The notes under the pieces are model-generated. The model did no database searches. It worked only from the letters and a program-made list of their open reading frames with translations, and was not told the origin of the DNA. Below, piece after piece: positions 1-18,400 of a stretch of 64,000 nucleotides of DNA. The DNA is taken from NCBI GenBank assembly GCA_964474995.1, contig CAYYUY010000005.1, positions 7,816 through 71,815 of the forward strand. Reading direction: 5' to 3'. Numbering within the stretch: position 1 is the stretch's first letter; the number at the start of each line of letters is the position of its first letter. A program made the translations under genes and the position numbers. The DNA is from an uncultured Candidatus Saccharibacteria bacterium. GTDB taxonomy: Bacteria; Patescibacteriota; Saccharimonadia; Saccharimonadales; JALRHH01.

Positions 1-364
1 TTTTTTTGGTTGGGGCGGTGGAGCTTGTATCAGGAACATAAACGTATGAGTGTTGCTGGGCCATTGCATTGTATTGGTCAGCTAGTGCTTTTTGTTCTTC
101 TGCTTGCTTTTTGAGTGCATCAACTTCTTGTGTCGAAGAAGTGTCTGAAGACGAACTAGCGGTTGCCATCTGAAGTCTCTCAAGGCTCGCATCTGATGTC
201 ACATCAATCAATTGCGGAGCAACGTGATTGCGTGACCTTGAAATAAGTGCTCTAGATCCAAAGCCTACGACAGAGAGTACTACTATCCCAATCGATAGAT
301 TGCGCAAAACAGCGTTTCTTCTATAGCCCTTATGTAGCCGTTCAAGATCAAGTAGTGGTTCCAT
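1..364 (-). CDS. hypothetical membrane-anchored protein, 5' part only (ORF runs off the window start)
   Basis: Manual minus-strand translation from ATG at 362-364 (MEPLLDLERLHKGYRRNAVLRNLSIGIVVLSVVGFGS...) is open with no stop down to position 1. One hydrophobic segment followed by a Ser/Thr-rich region. Absent from the ORF track because no stop codon falls in the window. Confidence 0.4.
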   Translation of the reverse strand, partial: MEPLLDLERLHKGYRRNAVLRNLSIGIVVLSVVGFGSRALISRSRNHVAPQLIDVTSDASLERLQMATASSSSDTSSTQEVDALKKQAEEQKALADQYNAMAQQHSYVYVPDTSSTAPTKK

Positions 365-528
365 ATTGTTACTAATATAACACTTCTTGGTGCATGAGAC
401 TCTGGCGGAGGTTCATGGATGAGGATAGAATTTTATACTCTGTTATTGAAAACGTTATTCCAGATTACGACGAAGATTACTTAAGGTGGCGTGATGACAA
501 ATAGCGAAATACACAGTATCTCAGTAGC

Positions 529-3519
529 TTGGACTATAATTTGAACAGAGATATATGGTTTATGACAGATAATGGTAAGAACGAAGAGAAGATACATATA
601 ATCCTACAGGAGTTTAGGGGTAATATCCGGCTGTACGAAGAACTTTGCACTCTTAATATCAAACCACTCTTAGAAAAACTTCTTGCCGATTCAGGTATTA
701 AGGCACAGGCAGTAACTGCACGAGCTAAAAGTTATAAATCGTATGAGCAAAAAATACGCACTAGATCCGAAGCTGGGCAAAAAACGAAAAAATACAATGA
801 AATAAGAGACCTGGCTGGTTGTAGGGTAATCTTCTACCAGGAAGATGATCTAGGGGCATTTATAAGCGTTGTTAGAGAGCAATTTGGAGTTGTACACGAG
901 AAGCAAGAAGTTAATGAAGATGGCTATAATGCTACTCACTTGACGGTTAAACTTAATGCCGAGCGTTCTAAACTACCCGAATATAAAAAGTTTGCCGATA
1001 TGCTTTGTGAGATACAGTTTACAACTGTATTAGCACACGCTTGGGCGGAACAAAATCACGATCTGATTTATAAAGACCAAGATCAGCTTAGAAAATTTGA
1101 TCCTCAAGGCTATGAAGCATTGGACACTGAACTTAAGGCAATTATGAAAGAACACTTAATACCGGCGACTAGACGCTTCGGTATCGTACAGAAAAAAGCG
1201 GAAAGGATTAGAGAAGGTCAGAAGATTTTTAACACAGATTATCTAAGCTCTATCCCTAGCATTGAGAATAACAATGAGATGTACGACCAGCTCAAGCTCT
1301 TGGAAAGTTACGTGAAAGAACTGAGCGAAGAGAAAACACCTGATGATGTTAATATCATTGATCTCCTAAAAAAAGCGATTGAGCAATCTAAGAAGAATAA
1401 AGTCAGACAAGATGTATCGATTTTTGGTAAAACTCCCGGGAAGAACCAACTAGACATTATTGATGTAGTCATAGACATACTTGATGTTCCATTATTAAAA
1501 TACAACCACTTTAGTGAGGTCTTTGCGATTTTCCAGGAGTTCAGCAAGCACAAAAACAAACACATCAAAGAAAAGGCCTTAAAGAGTATTGTTGACCTTG
1601 CTAAATACAACTACCACGTTATTAAGCAGGTTGATTACGCATTCCAACTTGAGCTAATAACTAAGCTTGAAAAACTACCTTTAACAATCTTGATGAACCC
1701 GGCGGAAGCAACAATAAAAATGCTTGAGGAGTTACTTGATACATCATTTGAAGGAACTAGCTTTGACCCAAAGACACAAGCTCTAACTTTGCACTCAGGA
1801 CCACTTATAGCGACTGATGATTTAAAAAATATTCGCAAAACTGCCTTAGGTATTCTCTTTAGAATGTACGAAAAAACTAAGAGCTTTGAGCTTAAAGAAC
1901 AAGTGATGAGCGCTATTCAGAATGCAACCAGATTGCCTCATACGGGCGATTGTAGTGATGAACTAGTTAAACTGCTCGAAGAAAGCGGCAGGCAGGTAAT
2001 TAATTTCTTCCACAAGAACGCTCCGGAAGCACCACTGGCTCTACTGCTTGATATGGAAGAAGAACTTATATGGTTGCGTAAAAGATTTAAGCGAGAGAAC
2101 CTTGGCAATCTTGAGCAAATGATTGATATTCTAAAAGCCAATGATGACTACCAAGTATACCGTGTTCTCGCCGGATATCCGGGAAGATTAACGATTGATC
2201 CTTCTGATCTTGAGATAGAAAAGGAGCTACGTGAAGAAAAAGCCGAAGAGTTCATTGATAGCTTTAGCCAAGACACAAAGGAATTGTGGCACAAACGTAT
2301 ACTGAACATTGCTAATAACTACGAACCGGGTGGAAGAAGACTTATTTACTTTGAAGAGTTTTTGGTCAAGCTGGGTACTAAAAAACCAGAGCTTGTTTTA
2401 GGTTTTATTAATGAGCACGAAGAAGAACTAGGTGACTATTTAAACTTCTTACTTAAAGGCGTGCTTACTACTGGGTTTAAAGACCAAGCAATAGAACTTA
2501 TTGACGGCTGGATTGAAGTGGGAAAGCATTTATCTCAAACCGTCTTTGCCGTTTGGGAATTAAGTCTTGACCAAAAAAGGCTTGAAAAAATTCTTGAAAA
2601 AGCTTTAGAAAAAAATGAAGGCTTCGCTTTAATTGCATTGCTTAGGCTGGTTTTTAAAAGTTATGCCGAACTTCCTGCTGATGTCGCAAGTAAAATCATC
2701 TTTAGCATTACTGGTTCACTTGACAGTAAAAGATACCGCCATTGGCTTGAGTTCGTCTGGTATAACAAAGAAACCCTCAATCAATTCGTTGATAGCTTAA
2801 GCGACAGTGATATAGACGTGCTACTTAGAAGCTTCATTAAAGCTGATCGGATTGATTATCACTTCAATGATGTGCTTGAAAGTATCGCAAGGAAGCACCC
2901 AAAGAAAGTAATGGAGTTCTTCAAAACCCGTGTTCTTTATAAAAAAAATAAGCGAGCTGCAAATAAAGATTACTTTAGGTACGACGCAATTCCTTACCAC
3001 TTAGATGATCTTGGTGTTGAACTCAGAAAACACCCCAAAGAAGTATTACCAGAGCTTGTCAGCTGGTTGAGTGATAAGGTTCCGCTATTGCGTTGGGAAA
3101 CTGCACACTTCTTCTCTAACCTATATCCTACATTTGAAGATCCGCTAAGTACTTATCTAGAAGAAGTTGTAGATACAAAAGATACCAAGAAGATTGAGAA
3201 TATTGTATTGCCCGTTTTGCGTGAATATAAGGGTCAAGGCTTTACCCACCCGGTATGCAAGAAGATCGTAAAGTATTACGCCGACAAATATGACAGCGAT
3301 TTATTTATTGCTCTTTCACAAACTGGCGTTGTAAGTGGCGAATACGGCTTCGTAGGGGCTTACCAAGCAAAACAAGCGGAAATAAAACCCTGGCTTGAAG
3401 ATGAAGACAGCAAGGTAAAAGCCTTTGCCGAACGATATACTGCTTGGCTTGAAAAACGTATACGTTGGGAAAAGAAACGAGCTGATGACGATAAGGCGTC
3501 ACGAGAGGCCGGACTGTAG
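529..3519 (+). CDS. large RelA/SpoT-domain (alarmone synthetase / toxSAS-type nucleotidyltransferase) protein with ~800-aa C-terminal alpha-helical repeat domain
   Basis: N-terminal ~200 aa carry the (p)ppGpp-synthetase fold motifs in order: RAKSYKSYEQKIRTR (RxKS), DLAGCRVIFY (DxxGxR), DGYNATHLTV (GYxxxH), EIQFTT (EIQxRT-like) and HAWAEQNHDLIYK (HxxYK). The remainder is helix-rich with HEAT-like repeats and no recognisable enzymatic motif. The whole ORF is visibly AT-rich relative to its neighbours. The start is uncertain: TTG at 529 or ATG at 562. Confidence 0.7.
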   Translation: MDYNLNRDIWFMTDNGKNEEKIHIILQEFRGNIRLYEELCTLNIKPLLEKLLADSGIKAQAVTARAKSYKSYEQKIRTRSEAGQKTKKYNEIRDLAGCRVIFYQEDDLGAFISVVREQFGVVHEKQEVNEDGYNATHLTVKLNAERSKLPEYKKFADMLCEIQFTTVLAHAWAEQNHDLIYKDQDQLRKFDPQGYEALDTELKAIMKEHLIPATRRFGIVQKKAERIREGQKIFNTDYLSSIPSIENNNEMYDQLKLLESYVKELSEEKTPDDVNIIDLLKKAIEQSKKNKVRQDVSIFGKTPGKNQLDIIDVVIDILDVPLLKYNHFSEVFAIFQEFSKHKNKHIKEKALKSIVDLAKYNYHVIKQVDYAFQLELITKLEKLPLTILMNPAEATIKMLEELLDTSFEGTSFDPKTQALTLHSGPLIATDDLKNIRKTALGILFRMYEKTKSFELKEQVMSAIQNATRLPHTGDCSDELVKLLEESGRQVINFFHKNAPEAPLALLLDMEEELIWLRKRFKRENLGNLEQMIDILKANDDYQVYRVLAGYPGRLTIDPSDLEIEKELREEKAEEFIDSFSQDTKELWHKRILNIANNYEPGGRRLIYFEEFLVKLGTKKPELVLGFINEHEEELGDYLNFLLKGVLTTGFKDQAIELIDGWIEVGKHLSQTVFAVWELSLDQKRLEKILEKALEKNEGFALIALLRLVFKSYAELPADVASKIIFSITGSLDSKRYRHWLEFVWYNKETLNQFVDSLSDSDIDVLLRSFIKADRIDYHFNDVLESIARKHPKKVMEFFKTRVLYKKNKRAANKDYFRYDAIPYHLDDLGVELRKHPKEVLPELVSWLSDKVPLLRWETAHFFSNLYPTFEDPLSTYLEEVVDTKDTKKIENIVLPVLREYKGQGFTHPVCKKIVKYYADKYDSDLFIALSQTGVVSGEYGFVGAYQAKQAEIKPWLEDEDSKVKAFAERYTAWLEKRIRWEKKRADDDKASREAGL

Positions 3520-3637
3520 TCGCAATGCAGGAGTGCTGGGATGATAGAACTTTTTAACAGAGGTGGTAAATAATAAAAAAGTTCCAAGCAAAAATACTTG
3601 AAACTTTAACAGATAGGAAAGTTCTATCATTTGGACT

Positions 3638-3713
3638 TGGCAGGGGTGGCCGGGTTCGAACCGACGACACCTGGTTTTGGAGACCAGTGCTCTACCAACT
3701 GAGCTACACCCCT
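3638..3713 (-). tRNA. trpT: tRNA-Trp (anticodon CCA), CCA 3' end encoded
   Basis: The reverse complement folds as a canonical 76-nt cloverleaf: AGGGGTG-TA-GCTC-AGTTGGTA-GAGC-A-CTGGT-CTCCAAA-ACCAG-GTGTC-GTCGG-TTCGAAC-CCGGC-CACCCCT-G-CCA. The anticodon loop CTCCAAA gives anticodon CCA. Confidence 0.85.
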
Positions 3714-3824
3714 TCGTCATCTACTCTCGAGAGTGGAGACTCAACAATATTACTGCAATCAGACGTTTTTGTCACCTCTGTAGACTCTTTAAAAATATCC
3801 TGCAATCTGTTATACAATGGTGTA

Positions 3825-4490
3825 ATGAGTTCTAAACTTCGGCTGACACGCCCAACACTATTTATGGTTTATGGTTACCCTGGTGCAGGCAAGACCTTTT
3901 TTGCGCGCCAATTCTGCGAGGATATCACCGCAGCACACCTGCAAGGTGAGCGGATTCGTTCAGAACTGTTTGAAGACCCCCGCTATGACAGTGAAGAAAA
4001 TGGGATCGTCACCCACCTCCTCGACTATATGACTGGCGAATTCCTGACCGCTGAAGTCAGCGTGGTGTACGATGTGAACGCCCTTCGCATGTCACAGCGC
4101 CGTGAACTGCGAGAAATGGCCCGCAAACACAAAGCAGAAGTTGTCATGTTATGGTTCCAGATTGACGCCGAAAGCGCCTTTGCACGTGCGCACAAGCGTG
4201 ATCGCCGCCGCGTTGATGACAAATACTCCGAGTCAATCGACCGCACAACTTTCCAAAGCATTGCTGGTGGCATGCAAAACCCGGGCCTCAAAGAAGAATA
4301 CGTGGTGATTAGCGGCAAACACACCTACCAGACGCAGCGTGCGTCGGTACTAAAGAAGTTGTATGATACAGGCCTCCTGGATACCAGCGCTGCCAAGGGC
4401 AACGTCGTGAAGCCTGGTCTAGTGAACTTGATCCCAAATCCTCTTGGTGGTCGCGTGGACGATACGCGTCGCAATATCTTTATTCGTTAG
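3825..4490 (+). CDS. P-loop kinase, zeta-toxin / polynucleotide-kinase-like (AAA_33-type) ATP-binding protein
   Basis: Walker A motif GYPGAGKTFFAR lies right after the proposed ATG (MSSKLRL...). An AAHLQGERIRSELF motif resembles the PNK/zeta kinase fold. The ORF-track start at 3687 overlaps the tRNA and is rejected; the first ATG after the tRNA is at 3825. Confidence 0.65.
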   Translation: MSSKLRLTRPTLFMVYGYPGAGKTFFARQFCEDITAAHLQGERIRSELFEDPRYDSEENGIVTHLLDYMTGEFLTAEVSVVYDVNALRMSQRRELREMARKHKAEVVMLWFQIDAESAFARAHKRDRRRVDDKYSESIDRTTFQSIAGGMQNPGLKEEYVVISGKHTYQTQRASVLKKLYDTGLLDTSAAKGNVVKPGLVNLIPNPLGGRVDDTRRNIFIR

Positions 4491-10913: not shown

Positions 10914-10943
10914 ATCACGAAAACTCAGTAATGAGCATTAAGC

Positions 10944-10967
10944 GGCCCGGAAACGGGTCGTTTTTTT
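10944..10967 (+). terminator. rho-independent terminator after rplA
   Basis: ggcccg-gaaa-cgggtc hairpin (one G.U pair) followed by TTTTTTT. Confidence 0.55.
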
Positions 10968-11002
10968 GTGCCCACCAAAGTGCTAGTGGTACAATTATTT
11001 AT

Positions 11003-11764
11003 ATGATATTACTCGGTATGACTGGACCAATCGGCCATGGTAAAACGACGTTTGCTGAAGCCCTTCAGAAAATCGAACCAACGGCAGTTCACCTGGAGTC
11101 TAGTTTGATCATTGCAGAGTTAGCCAATGCCTGGCAGGCAACACTCGAAGAACCAATTGATCCGTATGACATCAATGCGCTCAATGATTGGCTTCGTAAG
11201 CTGGCACCTCTCATCGAAAATATGCTACAGACACCGTGTAGCTATGACCAGTTGCGGCTCAATCCCGACCGCGTCGATGAGCACCCCATTGAATATCAGA
11301 AACTGATTCTTCATGTTGAGAATCTTCGTCGCAACTTCGAGCTGGCTCATATACAGATAGGTATTGAAAACAAAGAATCATATCGACCATTATTGCAGTG
11401 GCTTGGCGGCTACCTTGTGGCACATGTCGATAAGGGCATTTGGTATAACGAGATTATTCGTCGCGCCAAACAACACGAGCAAGAGGGCAGCAAACTGTGT
11501 ATCGTTGGTGGACTCCGATTTCCAAATGACGCGGCAATACTACGTACCGCTGGGGCAATTATCATCAAGATTTATCGTCCAGGGCATTTACAAAGTGACA
11601 TGCTCGACCCTACCGAGCGCGAACGTGAAAATATAGTCGTTGATTCCACCGTCATGAGCAATGGCACCATTGAAGATGTTGATCGTTTTGCATCTGTCTT
11701 CTTGCAAGATATCAAAAACGATAATTTGCAGGTACTCTATCAGACCACACGCTACAGTGTGTAG
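11003..11764 (+). CDS. P-loop NTPase, putative (deoxy)nucleotide/nucleoside kinase
   Basis: Walker A GMTGPIGHGKTT immediately after ATG 11003 (MILLGMTGP...). No other family-specific motif recognised. Sits upstream of the dcd/tmk-thyX module. The ORF-track start at 10931 lies inside the rplA terminator and is rejected. Confidence 0.55.
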   Translation: MILLGMTGPIGHGKTTFAEALQKIEPTAVHLESSLIIAELANAWQATLEEPIDPYDINALNDWLRKLAPLIENMLQTPCSYDQLRLNPDRVDEHPIEYQKLILHVENLRRNFELAHIQIGIENKESYRPLLQWLGGYLVAHVDKGIWYNEIIRRAKQHEQEGSKLCIVGGLRFPNDAAILRTAGAIIIKIYRPGHLQSDMLDPTERERENIVVDSTVMSNGTIEDVDRFASVFLQDIKNDNLQVLYQTTRYSV

Positions 11765-11768
11765 CTTA

Positions 11769-13445
11769 CTATTTGACCTTCATAGCGCTCGTAAGAGCTG
11801 ATATGGCACGGCTGAACCCGGGGATGCCCCCACTATAAGCCACGTAGCGATCAGACCAAGATGGGTTATATTTAGCCTTAAAGCGCCGTAACCCACTAAA
11901 TGAATAAAACCTATCACCGTTGGAATAGACGAACTGGAGGGCATTATCAATGACCGTGCGGTCGTCATCGACGTTTTCGAGGCCAGATAATGGGCATAGC
12001 CCCGCATTGAGTCGGCGGATACCTGACTCGTGCAAATTTTTTGCAAAACACATCAACAAGTAATCATTGCTGTTTCCAAGCGCAACTGTCGTACTTCGTA
12101 GTAGATCAAAATTGGCCTCATGTTTGTCGTAGCTGGGAATCTGATTGATAAATGCCTGAATTACGCCATGCTCGTCACGGAGTACCATGACAGGACATTG
12201 TTGCATATATGCCTGGCTGAAGTAGCCCAACATAAAACCTCGTTCCGCACGCCCAGGCAGCGTCAACCAGGCATCAGAAACTTCCTTGAGCCTCGTAATT
12301 ACAGGTGCAGCGTGCGGCGGCTGTAGCAGCTCGGTAGTGTAACCATATTTTGTAAACTTATTGTGTATCTGTCGGAAATATTTACTCCGCGAGCCTGTTT
12401 CGATAAATGCAGCTAGATCGATGACCGCTTCCTCACCAATCTTTTGCAAACTAAAGCCATGGTCTCGATATAACTTCTTGTACCTGCCAGATATATGTAC
12501 AAAGGCTACTTGCCAGTCATTAACTTCACAGAGCTCCACAAATCCGTCGAGTAATCTAGAAAAATCATCCCTACGCCCAAATGGGTCAGCAACAACCAAT
12601 GCCACGCCACGACGAACTTTGTATGCGAGGCCAGCTGACTTGTTATCGGTGAAGTAATAGTGCTTGTCATGTGGCCACAACTTAAAAAACTCCTCGCTAT
12701 CATTGCCGGTTTGGTCAAGCAGCCCCTGAGCAATGTCATGGTTTGCCTTATCGCCGTTATATCGTATCTGTAAGGGCCGAAAGAGTGATATCGCCACATA
12801 CGCCAGTGATGCAACACTCACCACGCTGAGCGAGTCCTGAAACAATTTTGCACGGCGCGTGTATGGTATCAGTTGATCTGCGGTTGTCAGACCTAATTGG
12901 TCGATTGTTCGATGGGCGGCGTCCTCTACACTAATTTCATGATGAAAGTCATGCATATCAAGCAATAAAAAGCCCGACGTACCGTATGCAAATGTGATAA
13001 GCAGCACTAGCACCACCGACCGCAGTGCCACCTTGAAACTCTGAATACCACCACGAACCCTAAATGCCTGTCTACGATATATCAGCGCTATGATCAAAAG
13101 CGCCGGAATAAGCACTCGACGAACAAACAGTGTTTGATCAAACGGCTCGTGCTCAGTCAACATATCAATTGTATTAAAGCAGGCTAGTGCGCTGTAAATT
13201 GCCAATGTAACCCAGTAGGCGGTTTGCTTTCGTCGGCGTAATCTCGTCGAAAGATATATAAGACTCAGGGCTGCGATAAGTGAAAAACTTAAGGTCAGGT
13301 CATTGGTGTGACGTACATGATGTCCAATGAGCCGAATGCCTAGCACATCAATAAATATCACCAACCCGTATAAGAAGACAGTTAACGACAATAACTGCAC
13401 CATGAAGTTAGGCGCGAGAATTCGCTGCGGAGAGGGTATTTTCAT
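11769..13445 (-). CDS. MprF-like aminoacyl-phosphatidylglycerol synthase (lysyl-PG synthase C-terminal domain with short N-terminal membrane anchor)
   Basis: N-terminal ~5 TM helices. C-terminal DUF2156/LPG-synthase hallmarks NQIPSYDKHEANFDLLR and YSFSGLRRFKAKYNPSW. Confidence 0.7.
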   Translation of the reverse strand: MKIPSPQRILAPNFMVQLLSLTVFLYGLVIFIDVLGIRLIGHHVRHTNDLTLSFSLIAALSLIYLSTRLRRRKQTAYWVTLAIYSALACFNTIDMLTEHEPFDQTLFVRRVLIPALLIIALIYRRQAFRVRGGIQSFKVALRSVVLVLLITFAYGTSGFLLLDMHDFHHEISVEDAAHRTIDQLGLTTADQLIPYTRRAKLFQDSLSVVSVASLAYVAISLFRPLQIRYNGDKANHDIAQGLLDQTGNDSEEFFKLWPHDKHYYFTDNKSAGLAYKVRRGVALVVADPFGRRDDFSRLLDGFVELCEVNDWQVAFVHISGRYKKLYRDHGFSLQKIGEEAVIDLAAFIETGSRSKYFRQIHNKFTKYGYTTELLQPPHAAPVITRLKEVSDAWLTLPGRAERGFMLGYFSQAYMQQCPVMVLRDEHGVIQAFINQIPSYDKHEANFDLLRSTTVALGNSNDYLLMCFAKNLHESGIRRLNAGLCPLSGLENVDDDRTVIDNALQFVYSNGDRFYSFSGLRRFKAKYNPSWSDRYVAYSGGIPGFSRAISALTSAMKVK

Positions 13446-13583
13446 TACCCTTATTGTACGCTAGTTTCATATCTGTTAACCACAACAAATTGCCCTGATA
13501 TAGTTGTAATATTTGTGCTTATGCTTGCGTCATGGTTTTGACAAACCGTACAATACATACAAATCGTAATAGAGGGAGCGATC

Positions 13584-14297
13584 GTGGGGGTCTACAGCAA
13601 CATTCAAATTCGCGAAGCGCTAGAGGAAGGGCATATTGTTTGTGTACCTTTTAATGATAAGCACGTTGCACACGCCAGCCTCGACGTAACGCTTGGCTAT
13701 TACTACTACCGAACCGGCCAGTCAAAGCGTGGTTATGTCTACAATCCATTTGATGAGCGTGATGTTCGTCGCTACTTTGGCGAAGCACAGCAAGCAGTGA
13801 TTCACCAAGATTGGGCCAATGCAAACGGTGTCGAACCACTTGCCAATATTCCACTCGATCACCCTGTCATTCCACTTCGTCCTGGTGAGCGCATCCTCGC
13901 GCACACACATGAATTCTTTGGCATCAAGCCACCTGGTGCGTATCAGGTCAAGGCACGTAGTAGCTGGGGCCGTAACGGCGTGGCTGTCTGTTTTGACGCT
14001 GGTTGGGTTGATCCAGGGTATATCAACCGCCTAACACTTGAAATCTACAACCTCAACGAGCATGAGACGGTACTCATACCTGTTGGAGAGCGTATCGCCC
14101 AAGCTGTGTTCCTGACGACAGGTGAAGTCGAAGGCAGCTACGGCAAGGGTCGTGATGGTGGTTTCAGTGGTAAATACCAACAAGGGGACAACCTTGATGA
14201 GATTATCAGTAGATGGACACCTGAAATGTTGCTTCCACGGGCTTACAAAGACGCTCGAACCCTCCCGGAGGAGATCAAAGGTTTAAAAGCACGATGA
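13584..14297 (+). CDS. dcd: dCTP deaminase family protein (Dcd-like, possibly bifunctional dCTP deaminase/dUTPase)
   Basis: GTG start preceded by AGAGGGAG. N-terminus IQIREALEEGHIVCVPFNDKHVAHASLDVTLG matches the Dcd/dUTPase-fold motif. C-terminal YGKGRDGGFSGKYQ matches the Dcd tail. Overlaps the next ORF by 4 nt (operon). Confidence 0.7.
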   Translation: MGVYSNIQIREALEEGHIVCVPFNDKHVAHASLDVTLGYYYYRTGQSKRGYVYNPFDERDVRRYFGEAQQAVIHQDWANANGVEPLANIPLDHPVIPLRPGERILAHTHEFFGIKPPGAYQVKARSSWGRNGVAVCFDAGWVDPGYINRLTLEIYNLNEHETVLIPVGERIAQAVFLTTGEVEGSYGKGRDGGFSGKYQQGDNLDEIISRWTPEMLLPRAYKDARTLPEEIKGLKAR

Positions 14298-16636
14298 GCG
14301 CAAAATCTACGCCTACCAAAGGAGTGTTCCTGGTTATTGAAGGTACTGATGGCTCCGGCAAGGGTACGCAGTTCAAGAAGCTCGTAGAACGGCTGACAAC
14401 TGAAGGCTACGACGTTGCTACCTTTGACTTTCCGCAGTATGAGCAGCCTTCAAGCTACTTTGTCCGCGAATATCTAAATGGCAACTATGGCACGGCAGAA
14501 GAAGTTGGCCCATACACTGGATCACTCTTTTACGCGCTTGATCGCTTCCAGGCTGCCAAAGAAATCCGCGCTGCAATTGATGCTGGAAAAGTTGTCATTG
14601 CCAACCGTTTCACTGGCTCTAACATGGCCCATCAAGGCACCAAGTTCAGTAACGCCGAAGAGCGTCGTGGATATTTCATCTGGCTTGATAATCTCGAGTT
14701 TCAGATGCTCAATATACCACGCCCAGATCGTTCGATTGTGCTCCGAGTTCCAGCTGCTACTGCACAGAAACTTGTTGATCAAAAAGAAACACGTAGCTAT
14801 ACCGATAAAAAGCGCGACATCCACGAAGCTGACCTGAGTCACCTGGAACGAGCAGTTGAAGTCTATGACGATCTCTGCAATCTGTTTCCGAAAGACTTCA
14901 CCCGCATTGATTGCGTTCGTGGTGATAACCTCCTCGATATCGATACTATCCACGACTTGCTCTGGAAGACACTCGAAGCCCATCTACCAGCAAAAGGTAC
15001 TACATCAACCACGACCACTACCAAGCCGGCATTGACCGAAACTGTCGTGCAGCCGTTCGTGAACAAGACTGATTATGGCTACGAGATGACTGCTGAAGGT
15101 GATGCATTTTTGCAGGATGCCGTCACTAGTACCACCGACAACGTCTATGCTTTCACCGACAAACTAAGTCCTATTACTATTGCCGCCGCCATGGCCCGTC
15201 TCAGCCGCCGAGGTGATGATATGCGCATTACAATCCTCGATGAATTTGCCGGTGCAAAAGGCAAAGATGAAAAACTTCTCCAGCGTGTCATTACTGCCTT
15301 TGGTGATGATTCCGTACAACAACTTGTTGGCCAACACGTAGTAATCGAAGGTGCTTCAAATTTGCTGACCAAAAAGCTTGAATGGGGTCGCCTGGCATCA
15401 TATCTTGAGCAATCAACGCGCTACATTTACTTTGATCAAAAAGACAAAGACGGCAAGTATAAATACTACGTGCCTGAATATTTTGACGCCAAGACCAAGC
15501 AAACATATATTACAGGCAACGACCAGATCTTTGACTTGTATTCAGATATGGTTCGCAAGCTGACCAAGCATGTGCGTGATAGCTCTAACACACCAAAAGA
15601 AGAACAAGATATGGCATGGCAAGGTGCGACGCGTGCCCAAGCCTGTGACGCCATTCGTGCTGTACTACCTGTATCTACTAAGTCTACGGTAGGTATTTAT
15701 GCCTCTGGCCAGGCATACGAAAGCCTTATCATGCACCTTCTCAGTGACGAATTGCCCGAAGCCCGCGAAACAGGGCAGAAGCTACTAGAACATGGTCGCA
15801 AGATCATTCCAGCCTTTCTGGAACGTGCCGACAAGCCTGATCGTGGTGGTGCACTGGTAGCCTACCGTGCAAACACGGCAAATGCCGTCAAGAAACTAGC
15901 TGAAGAATTACTACCTGATAACCACGCCTCTGAGACAGAACCAGTTACATTAGTTAACTTCTGGCCTCGTAACGAGCTCGACCTTGTACCAGATATGCTT
16001 TACGAACACAGCAGCCTACCACTCAAAGAGCTCCAATCAGAAACACAGAAATGGTCTATGACACAGAAAGAGCAGGTATTTAACACCTACATGGGCGAAC
16101 GCCTCAACCGTCGCCATCGACCGGGCAGGGCAGTCGAAAAAGCACATTACAGCTGGGATCTCGTCTGTGATTATGGTATTTTCCGTGATTTGCAACGCCA
16201 CCGTATGGTTGATGATCTCAACTGGCAGCTTCTGACACCACGCTATGGCTACGAAGTGCCTGAGCTCGTGGATGAAGCCAATCTGACCGATCAGTTCATT
16301 GAGTGTTTTGACCTTAGTCTCAAACTCTACAGCACCCTGCAACAAGCCGGATATGCACTCGAAGCCCAATATGCAACACTCCTTGGCCACCGTATGCGCT
16401 GGAAAATCACCTACAATGCCCGTGAAGCTTTCCACCTGCACGAACTACGCACCACGCCGCAAGGCCACCCAGGTTACCGTAAACTCGTCAAAGAAATGCA
16501 CGAAAAGCTTGCCGAGGTGCACCCACTCTTTGGTGAAGCCATGCGCTTCGTCAACAAAGGCGAAGATGAGGCACTGACTCGTTTGGCTGCCGAACGCTAC
16601 ACACAGTACAAGCTACAGCAGCTTGATAACAAATAA
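14294..16636 (+). CDS. fusion protein: thymidylate kinase (N-terminal) + tandem ThyX-like flavin-dependent thymidylate synthase domains (C-terminal)
   Basis: Residues ~1-230: FLVIEGTDGSGKGTQ P-loop and DRF motif of Tmk. Middle domain: GDDSVQQLVGQHVVIEGASNLLTKKLEWGRLASYLEQSTRY aligns with the ThyX RHRxxS...S.RY motif, with RHR replaced by WGR. Last domain: FRDLQRHRMVDDLNWQLLTPRY retains RHR, and MRWKITYNAREAFHLHELR matches the ThyX (M)NARE..H(F)..LR motif. Confidence 0.7.
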   Translation: MSAKSTPTKGVFLVIEGTDGSGKGTQFKKLVERLTTEGYDVATFDFPQYEQPSSYFVREYLNGNYGTAEEVGPYTGSLFYALDRFQAAKEIRAAIDAGKVVIANRFTGSNMAHQGTKFSNAEERRGYFIWLDNLEFQMLNIPRPDRSIVLRVPAATAQKLVDQKETRSYTDKKRDIHEADLSHLERAVEVYDDLCNLFPKDFTRIDCVRGDNLLDIDTIHDLLWKTLEAHLPAKGTTSTTTTTKPALTETVVQPFVNKTDYGYEMTAEGDAFLQDAVTSTTDNVYAFTDKLSPITIAAAMARLSRRGDDMRITILDEFAGAKGKDEKLLQRVITAFGDDSVQQLVGQHVVIEGASNLLTKKLEWGRLASYLEQSTRYIYFDQKDKDGKYKYYVPEYFDAKTKQTYITGNDQIFDLYSDMVRKLTKHVRDSSNTPKEEQDMAWQGATRAQACDAIRAVLPVSTKSTVGIYASGQAYESLIMHLLSDELPEARETGQKLLEHGRKIIPAFLERADKPDRGGALVAYRANTANAVKKLAEELLPDNHASETEPVTLVNFWPRNELDLVPDMLYEHSSLPLKELQSETQKWSMTQKEQVFNTYMGERLNRRHRPGRAVEKAHYSWDLVCDYGIFRDLQRHRMVDDLNWQLLTPRYGYEVPELVDEANLTDQFIECFDLSLKLYSTLQQAGYALEAQYATLLGHRMRWKITYNAREAFHLHELRTTPQGHPGYRKLVKEMHEKLAEVHPLFGEAMRFVNKGEDEALTRLAAERYTQYKLQQLDNK

Positions 16637-16642
16637 ATAAAA

Positions 16643-16665
16643 GGCCCTCTCACAAAGAGAGGACC
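16643..16665. terminator. hairpin between convergent genes (possible bidirectional terminator)
   Basis: ggccctctc-acaaa-gagaggacc stem-loop (one mismatch) preceded by A-rich sequence; no clean T-run on the plus strand. Confidence 0.35.
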
Positions 16666-16688
16666 TTACACATTTGCAGCGCTAGATC

Positions 16689-17303
16689 TTACAGGCCGGC
16701 GTGTCGTCGAATGGTTTTGACACCATGCGATATAGCACCAACAGTAAATTCTTGCGTGTTTACAAACAACTCCTTGAGTCCCTTGATCTGCAGAAGCTGC
16801 TCACGGCTAAACAATGGATCTTCTGCTTCGCCTGGATCATTTTGCCATACGTCGTAGTGCACTACTTCTTCATCACCTTCTTTTTCAACAGTACGCTGCG
16901 CAAATAACGTACCGATGGTTTTGTCAGGGAATACTTGTTCAAATCGATAACCAATGGTTTTATCCGGCATCTCAACCTTAGTAATCGCATCGTGGCTTGT
17001 TTCTAGAAATGACCGGCCGACAACGTCCAGTGCTGCATCACATTTTGACCGCTCAGGACGCAACGTTCTAACTCTCACCGCAAGGACATTTGTTTCTGTC
17101 ACATCTTGTTGAGGAGAGATAAGAACACTCAGAAATTCAACAGCCTTCTTAGTCTGTTCTGGATCTCTTATGTGGTTCAATCTCTCCTGAATAAATTCGG
17201 TTGCATAGTCATCGACTGGCATCGCCTGCTGCATGCTTTCAATGTATTGTTGCAAACTCTGTGCCAATTCGGCATCAAGTGCATCTGCTCGCTTCATCAT
17301 CAT
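16689..17303 (-). CDS. hypothetical protein with internal tandem repeat (PDKTIGYRFEQVF / PDKTIGTLFAQ)
   Basis: 204-aa ORF with no recognisable family motif; internal duplication visible in the translation. Confidence 0.45.
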   Translation of the reverse strand: MMMKRADALDAELAQSLQQYIESMQQAMPVDDYATEFIQERLNHIRDPEQTKKAVEFLSVLISPQQDVTETNVLAVRVRTLRPERSKCDAALDVVGRSFLETSHDAITKVEMPDKTIGYRFEQVFPDKTIGTLFAQRTVEKEGDEEVVHYDVWQNDPGEAEDPLFSREQLLQIKGLKELFVNTQEFTVGAISHGVKTIRRHAGL

Positions 17304-17518: not shown

Positions 17519-18400
17519 TTATGTCAAGCTTCGTGTATAGATAGATTCAGTTTTAACAAGGGTGGTAATGAGTTTATTAAGGCGTCCGACACTGCCGTAG
17601 TTGACGGCCGGACAGCCCGTAAACGGACGCTCGAGGTCGGCCATAGTGCGGTTATCGGTCACTGTTGCAAGGGCTAATCTACCAGAGCGAAGAGCGGTGA
17701 GGGTGAATTTGCGAGGATCATAGTGAAGGTGCTCATAATCAATTTGAATTGATGGCTTTACGCCTGTAGTGTCCATGACATTTTTGATAATCATGTCGTT
17801 ACCATGTTTGCTATGCCTGGCAAGCCGCTGGCTAAATGCCGATGTAGAGGGCAGTAAATTATAGCTCGCTTGTAGCTGCTCATCTGTCGACATGTCGGGT
17901 AACGACTCCTTTACAACGAACGGGACGACTTCAAACACCGCTACTGACGTTGCAACACCTTCCTGCAACGCTACTTTAATCATTTCGTGACCGTCATTTA
18001 GATATCGACGATCACGCTTGGCAGGCGTCAGTCGAGGCGGATGTTTACCCCACACCAAATCGGCGTGTGTTTCCATAACACCTCCTATTTGCTGACGATA
18101 TGTTGCATCAGAAGATATGAGCCCAAAATGAGCCTGCGCATAACGGCTTACAATACGCGCCGAGAATTTTTCCCAACCCACAGGAGTGGTAAAATCAAAA
18201 TCCGATGTACTGATCCGATGAGCTGCCACAGAGTCCTCAAAAGCATCAGTCGCTTGCTCAAACAGCTGTGCCGTCATGTCAAACATCTCCTGGAACCGTG
18301 GCCCATGCGCAGGCGCGCCACCATACGCAACATATGATTGCGTTAGTTCAGACGGTTCACACCAGTTTGGTTTTGCGAAGTTTTGCATAAGTTCATACAA
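17519..18400 (-). CDS. hypothetical protein
   Basis: 293-aa ORF; no recognisable motif. Confidence 0.45.
   Translation of the reverse strand: MYELMQNFAKPNWCEPSELTQSYVAYGGAPAHGPRFQEMFDMTAQLFEQATDAFEDSVAAHRISTSDFDFTTPVGWEKFSARIVSRYAQAHFGLISSDATYRQQIGGVMETHADLVWGKHPPRLTPAKRDRRYLNDGHEMIKVALQEGVATSVAVFEVVPFVVKESLPDMSTDEQLQASYNLLPSTSAFSQRLARHSKHGNDMIIKNVMDTTGVKPSIQIDYEHLHYDPRKFTLTALRSGRLALATVTDNRTMADLERPFTGCPAVNYGSVGRLNKLITTLVKTESIYTRSLT

Follow-up and report, generated by a model that had tools for sequence, protein, structure and literature searches.

We analyzed a stretch of 64,000 nucleotides (64 kb; hereafter the window) from an uncultured Candidatus Saccharibacteria bacterium (assembly GCA_964474995.1, contig CAYYUY010000005.1, positions 7,816 to 71,815 of the forward strand). 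At positions 13584 to 16636 the window carries a two-gene unit that is probably the housekeeping module for de novo thymidylate synthesis in Saccharibacteria. Its first gene, dcd, encodes a deoxycytidine triphosphate (dCTP) deaminase-family protein. The second encodes a fusion of 780 amino acids (aa) in which thymidylate kinase (Tmk) is tethered to two consecutive domains of the flavin-dependent thymidylate synthase ThyX. The residues that serve deoxyuridine monophosphate (dUMP) methylation in ThyX are split between these two domains, and a homodimer of the fusion would hold two live sites. The two genes are a translationally coupled operon: the dcd stop and the fusion start share 4 nucleotides (nt) as ATGA, with both open reading frames (ORFs) placed exactly as in an earlier annotation made from the letters alone (the sequence-only reading). 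A Shine-Dalgarno-like site, AGAGGGAG, lies 6 nt 5' of the dcd GTG start. The parts of the unit are the following.

13584..14297, plus strand: dcd, GTG start, 237 aa, dCTP deaminase-family protein
14294..16636, plus strand: tmk-thyX(N)-thyX(C) fusion gene, ATG start, 780 aa
14318..14983, plus strand: Tmk domain (aa 9-230), from the PF02223 match at aa 15-206
14984..15055, plus strand: Thr-rich linker LPAKGTTSTTTTTKPALTETVVQP (aa 231-254), with a predicted local distance difference test score (pLDDT) below 50 for aa 236-252
15056..15847, plus strand: N-terminal ThyX "dUMP-loop half" (aa 255-518; the N-half), by PF02511 and hhalign to Thermotoga maritima ThyX
15371..15424, plus strand: N-half signature KKLEWGRLASYLEQSTRY (aa 360-377), by motif comparison
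15848..16633, plus strand: C-terminal ThyX "flavin half" (aa 519-780; the C-half), by PF02511 and hhalign to T. maritima ThyX
16181..16204, plus strand: C-half signature FRDLQRHR (aa 630-637), by motif comparison
16415..16450, plus strand: C-half signature NAREAFHLHELR (aa 708-719), by motif comparison

Both halves of the tandem are ThyX domains far beyond chance, since they scored separately at 60.7 bits (aa 255-519) and 59.1 bits (aa 520-780) against PF02511 (Thy1; cut-off 24.8). Each half thus passes alone, which bears out the two ThyX-like domains proposed in the sequence-only reading. A family profile was needed for this recognition; single-sequence phmmer with each half against PDB sequences found no ThyX. 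We mapped both halves on T. maritima ThyX by hhalign, and the N-half also on Mycobacterium tuberculosis ThyX by profile. The numbering of the T. maritima reference sequence reproduces the published R74, R78-R80, S88, R90, Y91, R147, and R174. The C-half aligned to T. maritima ThyX with 88.6% probability (E = 2.7e-6), and the N-half profile matched M. tuberculosis ThyX (3gwc) at E = 1e-11.

The residue map revealed two complementary sets. The N-half keeps G337-D-D-S340, in which S340 takes the position of T. maritima T55 and M. tuberculosis S71. It also keeps K360 (R74 position in T. maritima), R366 (R80), E372 (E86), S374 (S88), R376 (R90), Y377 (Y91), and R455 (R147). In the same half W364-G365 replace R78-H79, S-G-Q replaces N163-A-R165, and the R174/H178 motif is missing. 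Conversely, the C-half keeps H608-x-P-G-R612-x-x-E615 (E615 corresponding to E58), R631 (R74), D632, R635-H636-R637 (R78-H79-R80), N708-A-R710 (N163-A-R165), H714, R719 (R174), and H725 (about H178). It has lost the S88/R90/Y91 loop, which is replaced by W644-Q645-x-L-T-P, and an invariant Y693 replaces R147. The full RHRx7S signature is present in neither ThyX domain and is complete only across both. Counterparts of T. maritima S88, R90, Y91, R174, R78, E86, and R147 are all present across the two halves. This map agrees with the split described earlier, WGR with Ser and Arg-Tyr in one half and RHR without the Ser in the other. The motifs quoted in support of it lie where they had been placed: EWGRLASYLEQSTRY at aa 363-377 in the N-half, QRHRMVDDLNWQLLTPRY at aa 634-651 in the C-half, and the signature at aa 708-719.

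Published work on ThyX gives these positions a meaning. S88, R90, and Y91 assist the carbinolamine SN2 step, while R174 activates dUMP (PMC8316439, PMC11940539). In M. tuberculosis ThyX, one active site draws on three subunits. Subunit A brings the RHR motif and R199, subunit B brings S71 and R190, and subunit C brings R87, the Q103 backbone, S105, R107, and the Y108 lid (PMC6514825). In PBCV-1 ThyX, monomer A contributes Q75 and R182, and monomer B contributes S88/Q89 (PMC3498832). As judged from the alignments, the partition of residues in the window protein follows these subunit roles. The C-half would be an A-type subunit, with the RHR flavin motif and the R78/R174-type Arg, and is possibly a B-type candidate too, through its R165-type Arg. 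The N-half would be a C-type subunit, with the E86/S88/R90/Y91 dUMP loop and lid and with K360 and R455 as putative phosphate ligands. Since ThyX sites need A-, B-, and C-type parts, a fusion homodimer packed as a ThyX-like pseudo-tetramer would have two complete sites and two dead ones, whichever way the halves are placed, and would bind about one flavin adenine dinucleotide (FAD) per chain. We infer both the catalytic activity of the fusion and this dimer-of-tandems stoichiometry.

Compared with canonical homotetrameric ThyX, also called flavin-dependent thymidylate synthase (FDTS; EC 2.1.1.148; TM0449, Rv2754c, A674R), the window tandem has the same fold (PF02511). All of the canonical R78-H79-R80, E86, S88, R90, Y91, R147, N163, R165, R174, and H178 are present, and the active sites are likewise expected across subunit-like units. 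It differs in having two domains per chain, with the residues partitioned between them, half of the potential sites predicted dead, and a Tmk fused in front. An AlphaFold2 model of aa 255-780, built from a 30-sequence alignment, had a mean pLDDT of 92.7 and a predicted template modeling score (pTM) of 0.89. This indicates that the modeled tandem is one compact unit in which the relative placement of the halves is confident. Foldseek of this model against the PDB retrieved only ThyX-family chains, at a probability of 1.00. The best were 2af6, 3gwc, and 1o26 (target-normalized template modeling scores of 0.65-0.75), and the matches comprised ThyX of M. tuberculosis, T. maritima, Thermus thermophilus, and PBCV-1 as well as the ThyX-like methylase PolB (4p5b). 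Among PDB chains matching the family profile we found no solved tandem form; all are of 270 aa or less. The full-length model scored lower (pLDDT 83.2, pTM 0.61, against a pTM of 0.89 without Tmk), and Tmk is predicted to be flexibly tethered to the tandem.

Tandem ThyX is a very large family, and the fusion is the form normally met in Saccharibacteria. More than 5,000 of 8,000 scored candidates matched at E ≤ 1e-5, and among the names of the homologues are Candidatus Saccharibacteria and Saccharimonadales. A HMMER search with aa 255-780 against 1.84 billion cluster representatives gave 3,408 matches, 697 of them below 1e-30. Their lengths fall into two groups, one of about 520-560 aa (tandem ThyX without Tmk) and one of about 720-800 aa (Tmk fused). 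In a scan of one genome per species, at least 596 genomes encode a relative. In that scan the fused form occurs in Saccharibacteria and in a Parcubacteria-labeled metagenome-assembled genome, and the unfused form occurs in Acidimicrobiia, other Actinomycetota, and Acidobacteriota. The sequence-only reading had called the fused asymmetric pair unusual. With thousands of relatives and at least 596 species genomes, the arrangement is not. A second subfamily is found in cultured cyanobacteria (Aphanothece hegewaldii, Calothrix, Richelia, and Chroococcopsis), DPANN archaea, and Buchananbacteria. A profile search for more diverse sequences returned Saccharibacteria fusions only.

The split is conserved throughout this range. 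Among close fusions, none of the 26 mapped ThyX positions varies in any of the 231 sequences, the query included, while the ThyX halves are about 74% identical overall. The same duplication and the same split recur at 30-56% identity to the query module (127 family representatives; 30-sequence alignment) in the unfused tandem ThyX of about 520-560 aa from Acidimicrobiia, Acidobacteriota, cyanobacteria, DPANN archaea, and other bacteria of the Candidate Phyla Radiation (CPR). These proteins are without the Tmk fusion and are annotated as "FAD-dependent thymidylate synthase." For those of Actinomycetota, Acidobacteriota, cyanobacteria, and DPANN archaea the identity is 30-45%. The N-half of the cyanobacterial and DPANN subfamily keeps an N-G-R motif and has E-D-x-R where the window protein has E-W-G-R. 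The N-half and C-half profiles match each other only weakly by hhalign (E = 0.0036). We therefore argue their homology through Pfam and ThyX. Because the halves are weakly alike and the split occurs in both subfamilies, the domain was probably duplicated long ago and the complementary losses are probably old as well; the two copies would have been subfunctionalized since. In most Saccharibacteria loci dcd lies directly 5' of the fusion. The Acidimicrobiia tandem-ThyX loci, unlike the window, have no dcd 5' of the gene.

The literature search found no paper describing a tandem or Tmk-fused ThyX, and a class of split-site tandem ThyX appears undescribed in the searchable literature; PMC2826268, PMC9931769, PMC5954106, and PMC10733785 yielded nothing on such a form. 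A possible lead is Chlamydia ThyX, which at about 529 aa may be a tandem form with biochemistry on record. A wider proposal, to which we give only slightly less than an even chance, is that tandem ThyX is a new FDTS class: an obligate asymmetric pseudo-heterotetramer with half the sites, which arose when an ancient duplication was followed by complementary loss. Saccharibacteria, many Actinomycetota, cyanobacteria, and DPANN archaea would use it as their thymidylate synthase, and in Saccharibacteria it would be fused to Tmk. In several lineages, after displacement by ThyA and dihydrofolate reductase (DHFR), it would have stayed on as a full-length pseudoenzyme appendage that may have taken on a new structural or regulatory function.

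Relatives in which the ThyX motifs have decayed bear on whether the intact module works. Among 124 family representatives classified by motif status, both halves are intact in 83, both are degenerate in 35, and one is degenerate in 6. An N-terminal extension the size of Tmk is present in 38 of the representatives, and in 33 of these both halves are degenerate; this tally overcounts fast-evolving lineages because the representatives were clustered at 50% identity. We looked up four degenerate members. P0192 (L081:6001-8241), on a Saccharimonadales/Patescibacteria contig, has ThyA (PF00303) and deoxycytidine monophosphate (dCMP) deaminase within 10 kb upstream and no adjacent dcd. P0137 (L083:10001-12253) and P0143 (L084:10001-12409) likewise have ThyA and dCMP deaminase within 10 kb, with DHFR (PF00186) nearby in addition, and no upstream dcd. 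The fourth, P0204 (L085:10001-12175), is taken up below. The surroundings of the decayed relatives (rplK, rplA, an MprF-like gene, rplJ, and rplL) are those of the window. In the decayed fusions the module is still of full length, and W-Q-x-L-T-P-R-Y and the equivalent of Y693 are among what it retains; it looks like a pseudoenzyme domain left on Tmk after non-homologous displacement. In this scenario, gain of the ThyA/DHFR/dCMP deaminase route would have relieved both ThyX halves of constraint together, and dcd would have been lost. The decay of the motifs and the loss of dcd in three ThyA-carrying relatives argue that the intact module is a working thymidylate synthase.

The N-terminal domain matched PF02223 at 66.1 bits (cut-off 27). 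It has the P-loop GTDGSGKGT (K23), R84, N104-R105-F106 where D-R-Y is expected, and a basic LID. The canonical-type kinase seen in the sequence-only reading is therefore present, although the NCBIfam equivalog cut-offs are not reached. Its closest PDB entry is M. tuberculosis Tmk (1g3u; aa 11-194, E = 1e-17). Compared with this type of Tmk (NF005923/PRK07933), the window domain keeps the P-loop Lys, D19 (D9-type), Y49, R84, R105, and the thymine-contacting N109-type Asn, but it is without the P-loop Arg, has N104 for the Asp of DRY, and is fused to ThyX. K23, R84, and R105 are invariant over 230 homologues, while position 104 is N in 142 and D in 88 of 231. Mean identity over the 230 homologues is 57% for Tmk, 73-75% for the ThyX halves, and 18% for the linker. 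Some Saccharibacteria fusions, such as L007:5227-7581, carry an N-terminal Tmk of another, classical type, whose tblastn identity to the window Tmk is none or only 23-30%; that locus also has an extra stand-alone Tmk-like gene (L007:3800-4459) 5' of dcd. The N-R/D-R division and the classical-type fusions suggest, at the level of sequence, two kinase-domain lineages or a domain swap.

Dcd scored 107.6 bits against PF22769 (DCD; cut-off 27). The catalytic R125, S126, R130, D143, and E153 are present and, like Q173, do not vary among 31 Saccharibacteria orthologues, for which a length of 237 aa is typical (225-238 aa). S126, R130, and E153 correspond to E. coli S111, R115, and E138. The closest solved relatives include 2qxx (M. 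tuberculosis), 1ogh (M. jannaschii), and 4xjc (B. halodurans). The record of 1ogh is titled bifunctional deaminase/diphosphatase, and 2qxx and 4xjc are bifunctional dCTP deaminase:dUTPases too. The window Dcd shares with them the catalytic Ser/Arg/Glu and the motif-III Asp but is 35-60 aa longer, with an insertion at about aa 45-90 and a C-terminal tail of about 40 aa. This tail, within GRDGGFSGKYQQG, reads G-R-D-G-G-F-S-G-K-Y-Q-Q-G. It looks like dUTPase motif V merged with the Dcd tail K-Y-Q-x-Q, and its G-G-F-S-G is largely kept among orthologues.

Whether Dcd would form dUMP directly from dCTP or would stop at deoxyuridine triphosphate (dUTP) matters for the unit as a whole. With a monofunctional Dcd the unit would not be a self-contained route from dCTP to thymidine diphosphate (dTDP), and a Dut encoded elsewhere would be required. 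We put this alternative somewhat below an even chance. It draws on the scope of TIGR02274, which covers both mono- and bifunctional kinds and whose equivalog cut-off of 92.8 the Dcd score of 85.1 does not reach, and on the 64 kb of genome in view for a dut gene. It is opposed by the solved relatives named above. Moreover, the search of solved structures with Dcd did not bring up the monofunctional Dcd of E. coli at E ≤ 1e-3, the AGWVDPG[YF] core agrees with the B. halodurans enzyme, and the G-G-F-S-G of the tail resembles dUTPase motif V. No dut gene turned up in the window either, nor in those related loci that the Dcd query was run against. Because the nearest solved relatives include bifunctional enzymes and the tail is motif-V-like, we lean toward direct dUMP formation, which by analogy with those enzymes has about even odds. 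We rejected a role for this gene as a defense-type dCTP deaminase in view of its translational coupling to tmk-thyX and its place in a conserved core gene order (rplK-rplA ... rplJ-rplL).

The ThyX module itself allows other readings. The tandem might be a stand-alone pseudo-dimer with one complete site per chain, for which no pseudo-tetramer of two tandems is needed. The single chain is indeed modeled as a compact, confident unit (pTM 0.89), and the N-half could give both B and C contacts, through the invariant S71-type S340 and, in cyanobacteria and DPANN archaea, an N-G-R motif with the R190-type Arg. However, published ThyX sites use three subunits (PMC6514825, PMC3498832), and a two-domain chain offers two. 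In the subfamily of the query, the R190-type position of the N-half is Q473, whereas R710 of the C-half is invariant, which suggests that a second C-half is needed. We regard the stand-alone pseudo-dimer as unlikely. Much less probable still is a diverged flavin-dependent pyrimidine modifier (a PolB-like UMP methylase, a hydroxymethylase, or a dCMP-modifying enzyme) that does not make thymidine monophosphate (dTMP). The ThyX fold does host other specificities, as the presence of PolB among the fold matches indicates. The tandem scores under the TIGR02170 equivalog cut-off, and its halves are too diverged for single-sequence phmmer to reach a solved ThyX. Yet the uracil-recognizing and catalytic residues of ThyX are all kept and invariant. 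The fused Tmk retains its thymine-contacting N109-type and stacking residues, the module is coupled to dcd, and the catalytic motifs decay in three relatives with ThyA on the contig. PolB, a member of the same ThyX-fold flavoenzyme family, is a single-domain homo-oligomer of secondary metabolism (polyoxin biosynthesis; UMP/dUMP methylation), whereas the window gene belongs to a core nucleotide-metabolism operon.

The phage-type hypermodification enzyme raised in the sequence-only reading fares no better. The locus has core synteny between rplA and rplJ, with no phage or modification island. The phage proteins matching the tandem are distant (23-25% identity; Microcystis and Tunturiibacter phages) and annotated as thymidylate synthase, and we rejected a phage affiliation on these matches. 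Two of the phage regions, NC_008562.1:15711-16688 (Microcystis phage Ma-LMM01) and PP885688.1:46807-47979, align to module residues of about 139-512, across the half junction. Least probable of all is that the tandem has, in the window protein, lost its catalysis and serves Tmk as a scaffold or regulatory appendage. That is apparently its state in many other Saccharibacteria, where the module is full-length in the 33 of 38 Tmk-fused representatives that are degenerate in both halves. In the query and its 230 close homologues, by contrast, every mapped catalytic or binding residue is kept. In addition, dcd is still upstream, and ThyA, DHFR, and dCMP deaminase were not found in the 64-kb window.

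We thus favor a working module in which Dcd, a split-site tandem ThyX, and a tethered Tmk act in succession. Dcd would deaminate dCTP, releasing dUMP directly or else dUTP for a Dut not seen here. The tandem ThyX, judging from its conserved residues, would then methylate dUMP to dTMP with FAD, NADPH, and methylenetetrahydrofolate. The N-terminal Tmk, on its flexible linker, would phosphorylate dTMP to dTDP. The compact route from dCTP to dTDP outlined in the sequence-only reading is thereby largely sustained, by the conserved dcd-tmk/thyX2 synteny and the invariance of all mapped catalytic positions, and further by the ThyX decay and dcd loss on contigs that carry ThyA and dCMP deaminase (two of three with DHFR). 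Its observation that the window shows no dut or thyA also stands: tblastn of the 64 kb found no second tmk, thyX, or dcd/dut, and no thyA, beyond the unit. The suggestion of channeling did not hold up. Disorder is predicted for the poorly conserved linker, and adding Tmk to the model lowers pTM from 0.89 to 0.61, so that the models do not support a structured channel. Most plausibly, the fusion secures 1:1 expression and proximity rather than true channeling. The bifunctional DHFR-TS of protozoa and plants is likewise a covalent fusion of consecutive thymidylate enzymes, but its folds and partner are unrelated (ThyA and DHFR), and it has a structured junction and documented electrostatic channeling, whereas the window linker is predicted to be disordered.

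Several observations weigh against a housekeeping thymidylate module of this kind. The tandem reached 51.6 bits against TIGR02170 (thyX; equivalog cut-off 87.9), and the kinase domain is under both of its equivalog cut-offs (NF005923, 129.8 against 193; TIGR00041, 62.9 against 83.25). That Dcd, Tmk, and ThyX all lie under the NCBIfam equivalog cut-offs fits their divergence. Loss of motifs and loss of dcd do not always coincide. P0204 is degenerate and retains its upstream dcd, with the contig ending there. The motif-intact L015 (518-1351, 3984-4472) and L029 (3315-4621) have ThyA and DHFR a few kb upstream and no dcd; these two may be loci in which ThyA is part way to replacing ThyX. Loci L001-L080 were fetched by patterns from two motifs, and in this set those two motifs are conserved by construction. 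At positions outside the selection (GDDS, K360, R455, HxPGRxxE, Y693, NAR, R719, and H725) the loci are still invariant. The placement of "subunit B" is ambiguous in sequence terms, since S340 (S71-type, N-half) and R710 (R190-type, C-half) point opposite ways. R455, at the position of T. maritima R147, presumably shares its role with S374. Our search of the literature found no activity, cofactor, or oligomer data for any tandem ThyX. Finally, the window is 64 kb of the genome, and a further thymidylate synthase, Tmk, or Dut may lie elsewhere.

The locus lies in core-genome synteny, with rplK, rplA, and an MprF-like gene, then rplJ and rplL. A consensus scan picked out two signals around the unit.

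13476..13504, plus strand: promoter-like site TTAACC-17-TATAGT with TG extension, about 80 nt 5' of dcd
16641..16667, strand not assigned: 11-bp G+C-rich hairpin between the fusion and the convergent ORF at 16689..17303 (minus strand)

Promoter-like sites around dcd are no more numerous than in shuffled sequence, which makes the count weak evidence for the first signal. The hairpin, with a T-run on its minus-strand side, is likely a terminator. Two ORFs lie directly downstream, convergent with the fusion (16689-17303, 204 aa, and 17519-18400, 293 aa, both on the minus strand); neither has a Pfam match at E ≤ 0.01. Upstream, a 277-aa P-loop ORF (10931-11764, plus strand) matched PF21448, a phage-type deoxynucleotide monophosphate kinase family, at 37.1 bits. 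Its orthologue lies directly 5' of dcd in six Saccharibacteria loci (L001, L004, L005, L008, L023, and L028), and in the window the minus-strand MprF-like gene (11769-13445) parts it from dcd. Farther away, window positions 1-4000 have a G+C content of 0.39-0.41, against 0.46-0.51 in the remaining window. This segment holds a 996-aa ORF (529-3519), ends beside a tRNA-Trp (3638-3713), and may be foreign DNA or a region of rapidly evolving surface proteins.

ThyX is an antimicrobial target, and its mechanism relies on residues of three subunits. A natural covalent split-site ThyX would offer an asymmetric system for assigning subunit roles and for half-of-sites tests. The split would also change the expected FAD stoichiometry and the inhibitor-relevant interfaces in cyanobacteria, Acidimicrobiia, CPR bacteria, and DPANN archaea. 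For annotation, the homologues are named inconsistently ("thymidylate kinase/thymidylate synthase ThyX," "FAD-dependent thymidylate synthase," "dTMP kinase," or "hypothetical protein"), and active and decayed fusions are not told apart. The repeated decay of the module with ThyA nearby, in two of three cases also with DHFR, is consistent with a non-homologous displacement after which a pseudoenzyme domain persists. Where the module is intact, as in the window, the unit would show host-dependent Saccharibacteria keeping a minimal, self-contained route from dCTP to dTDP.

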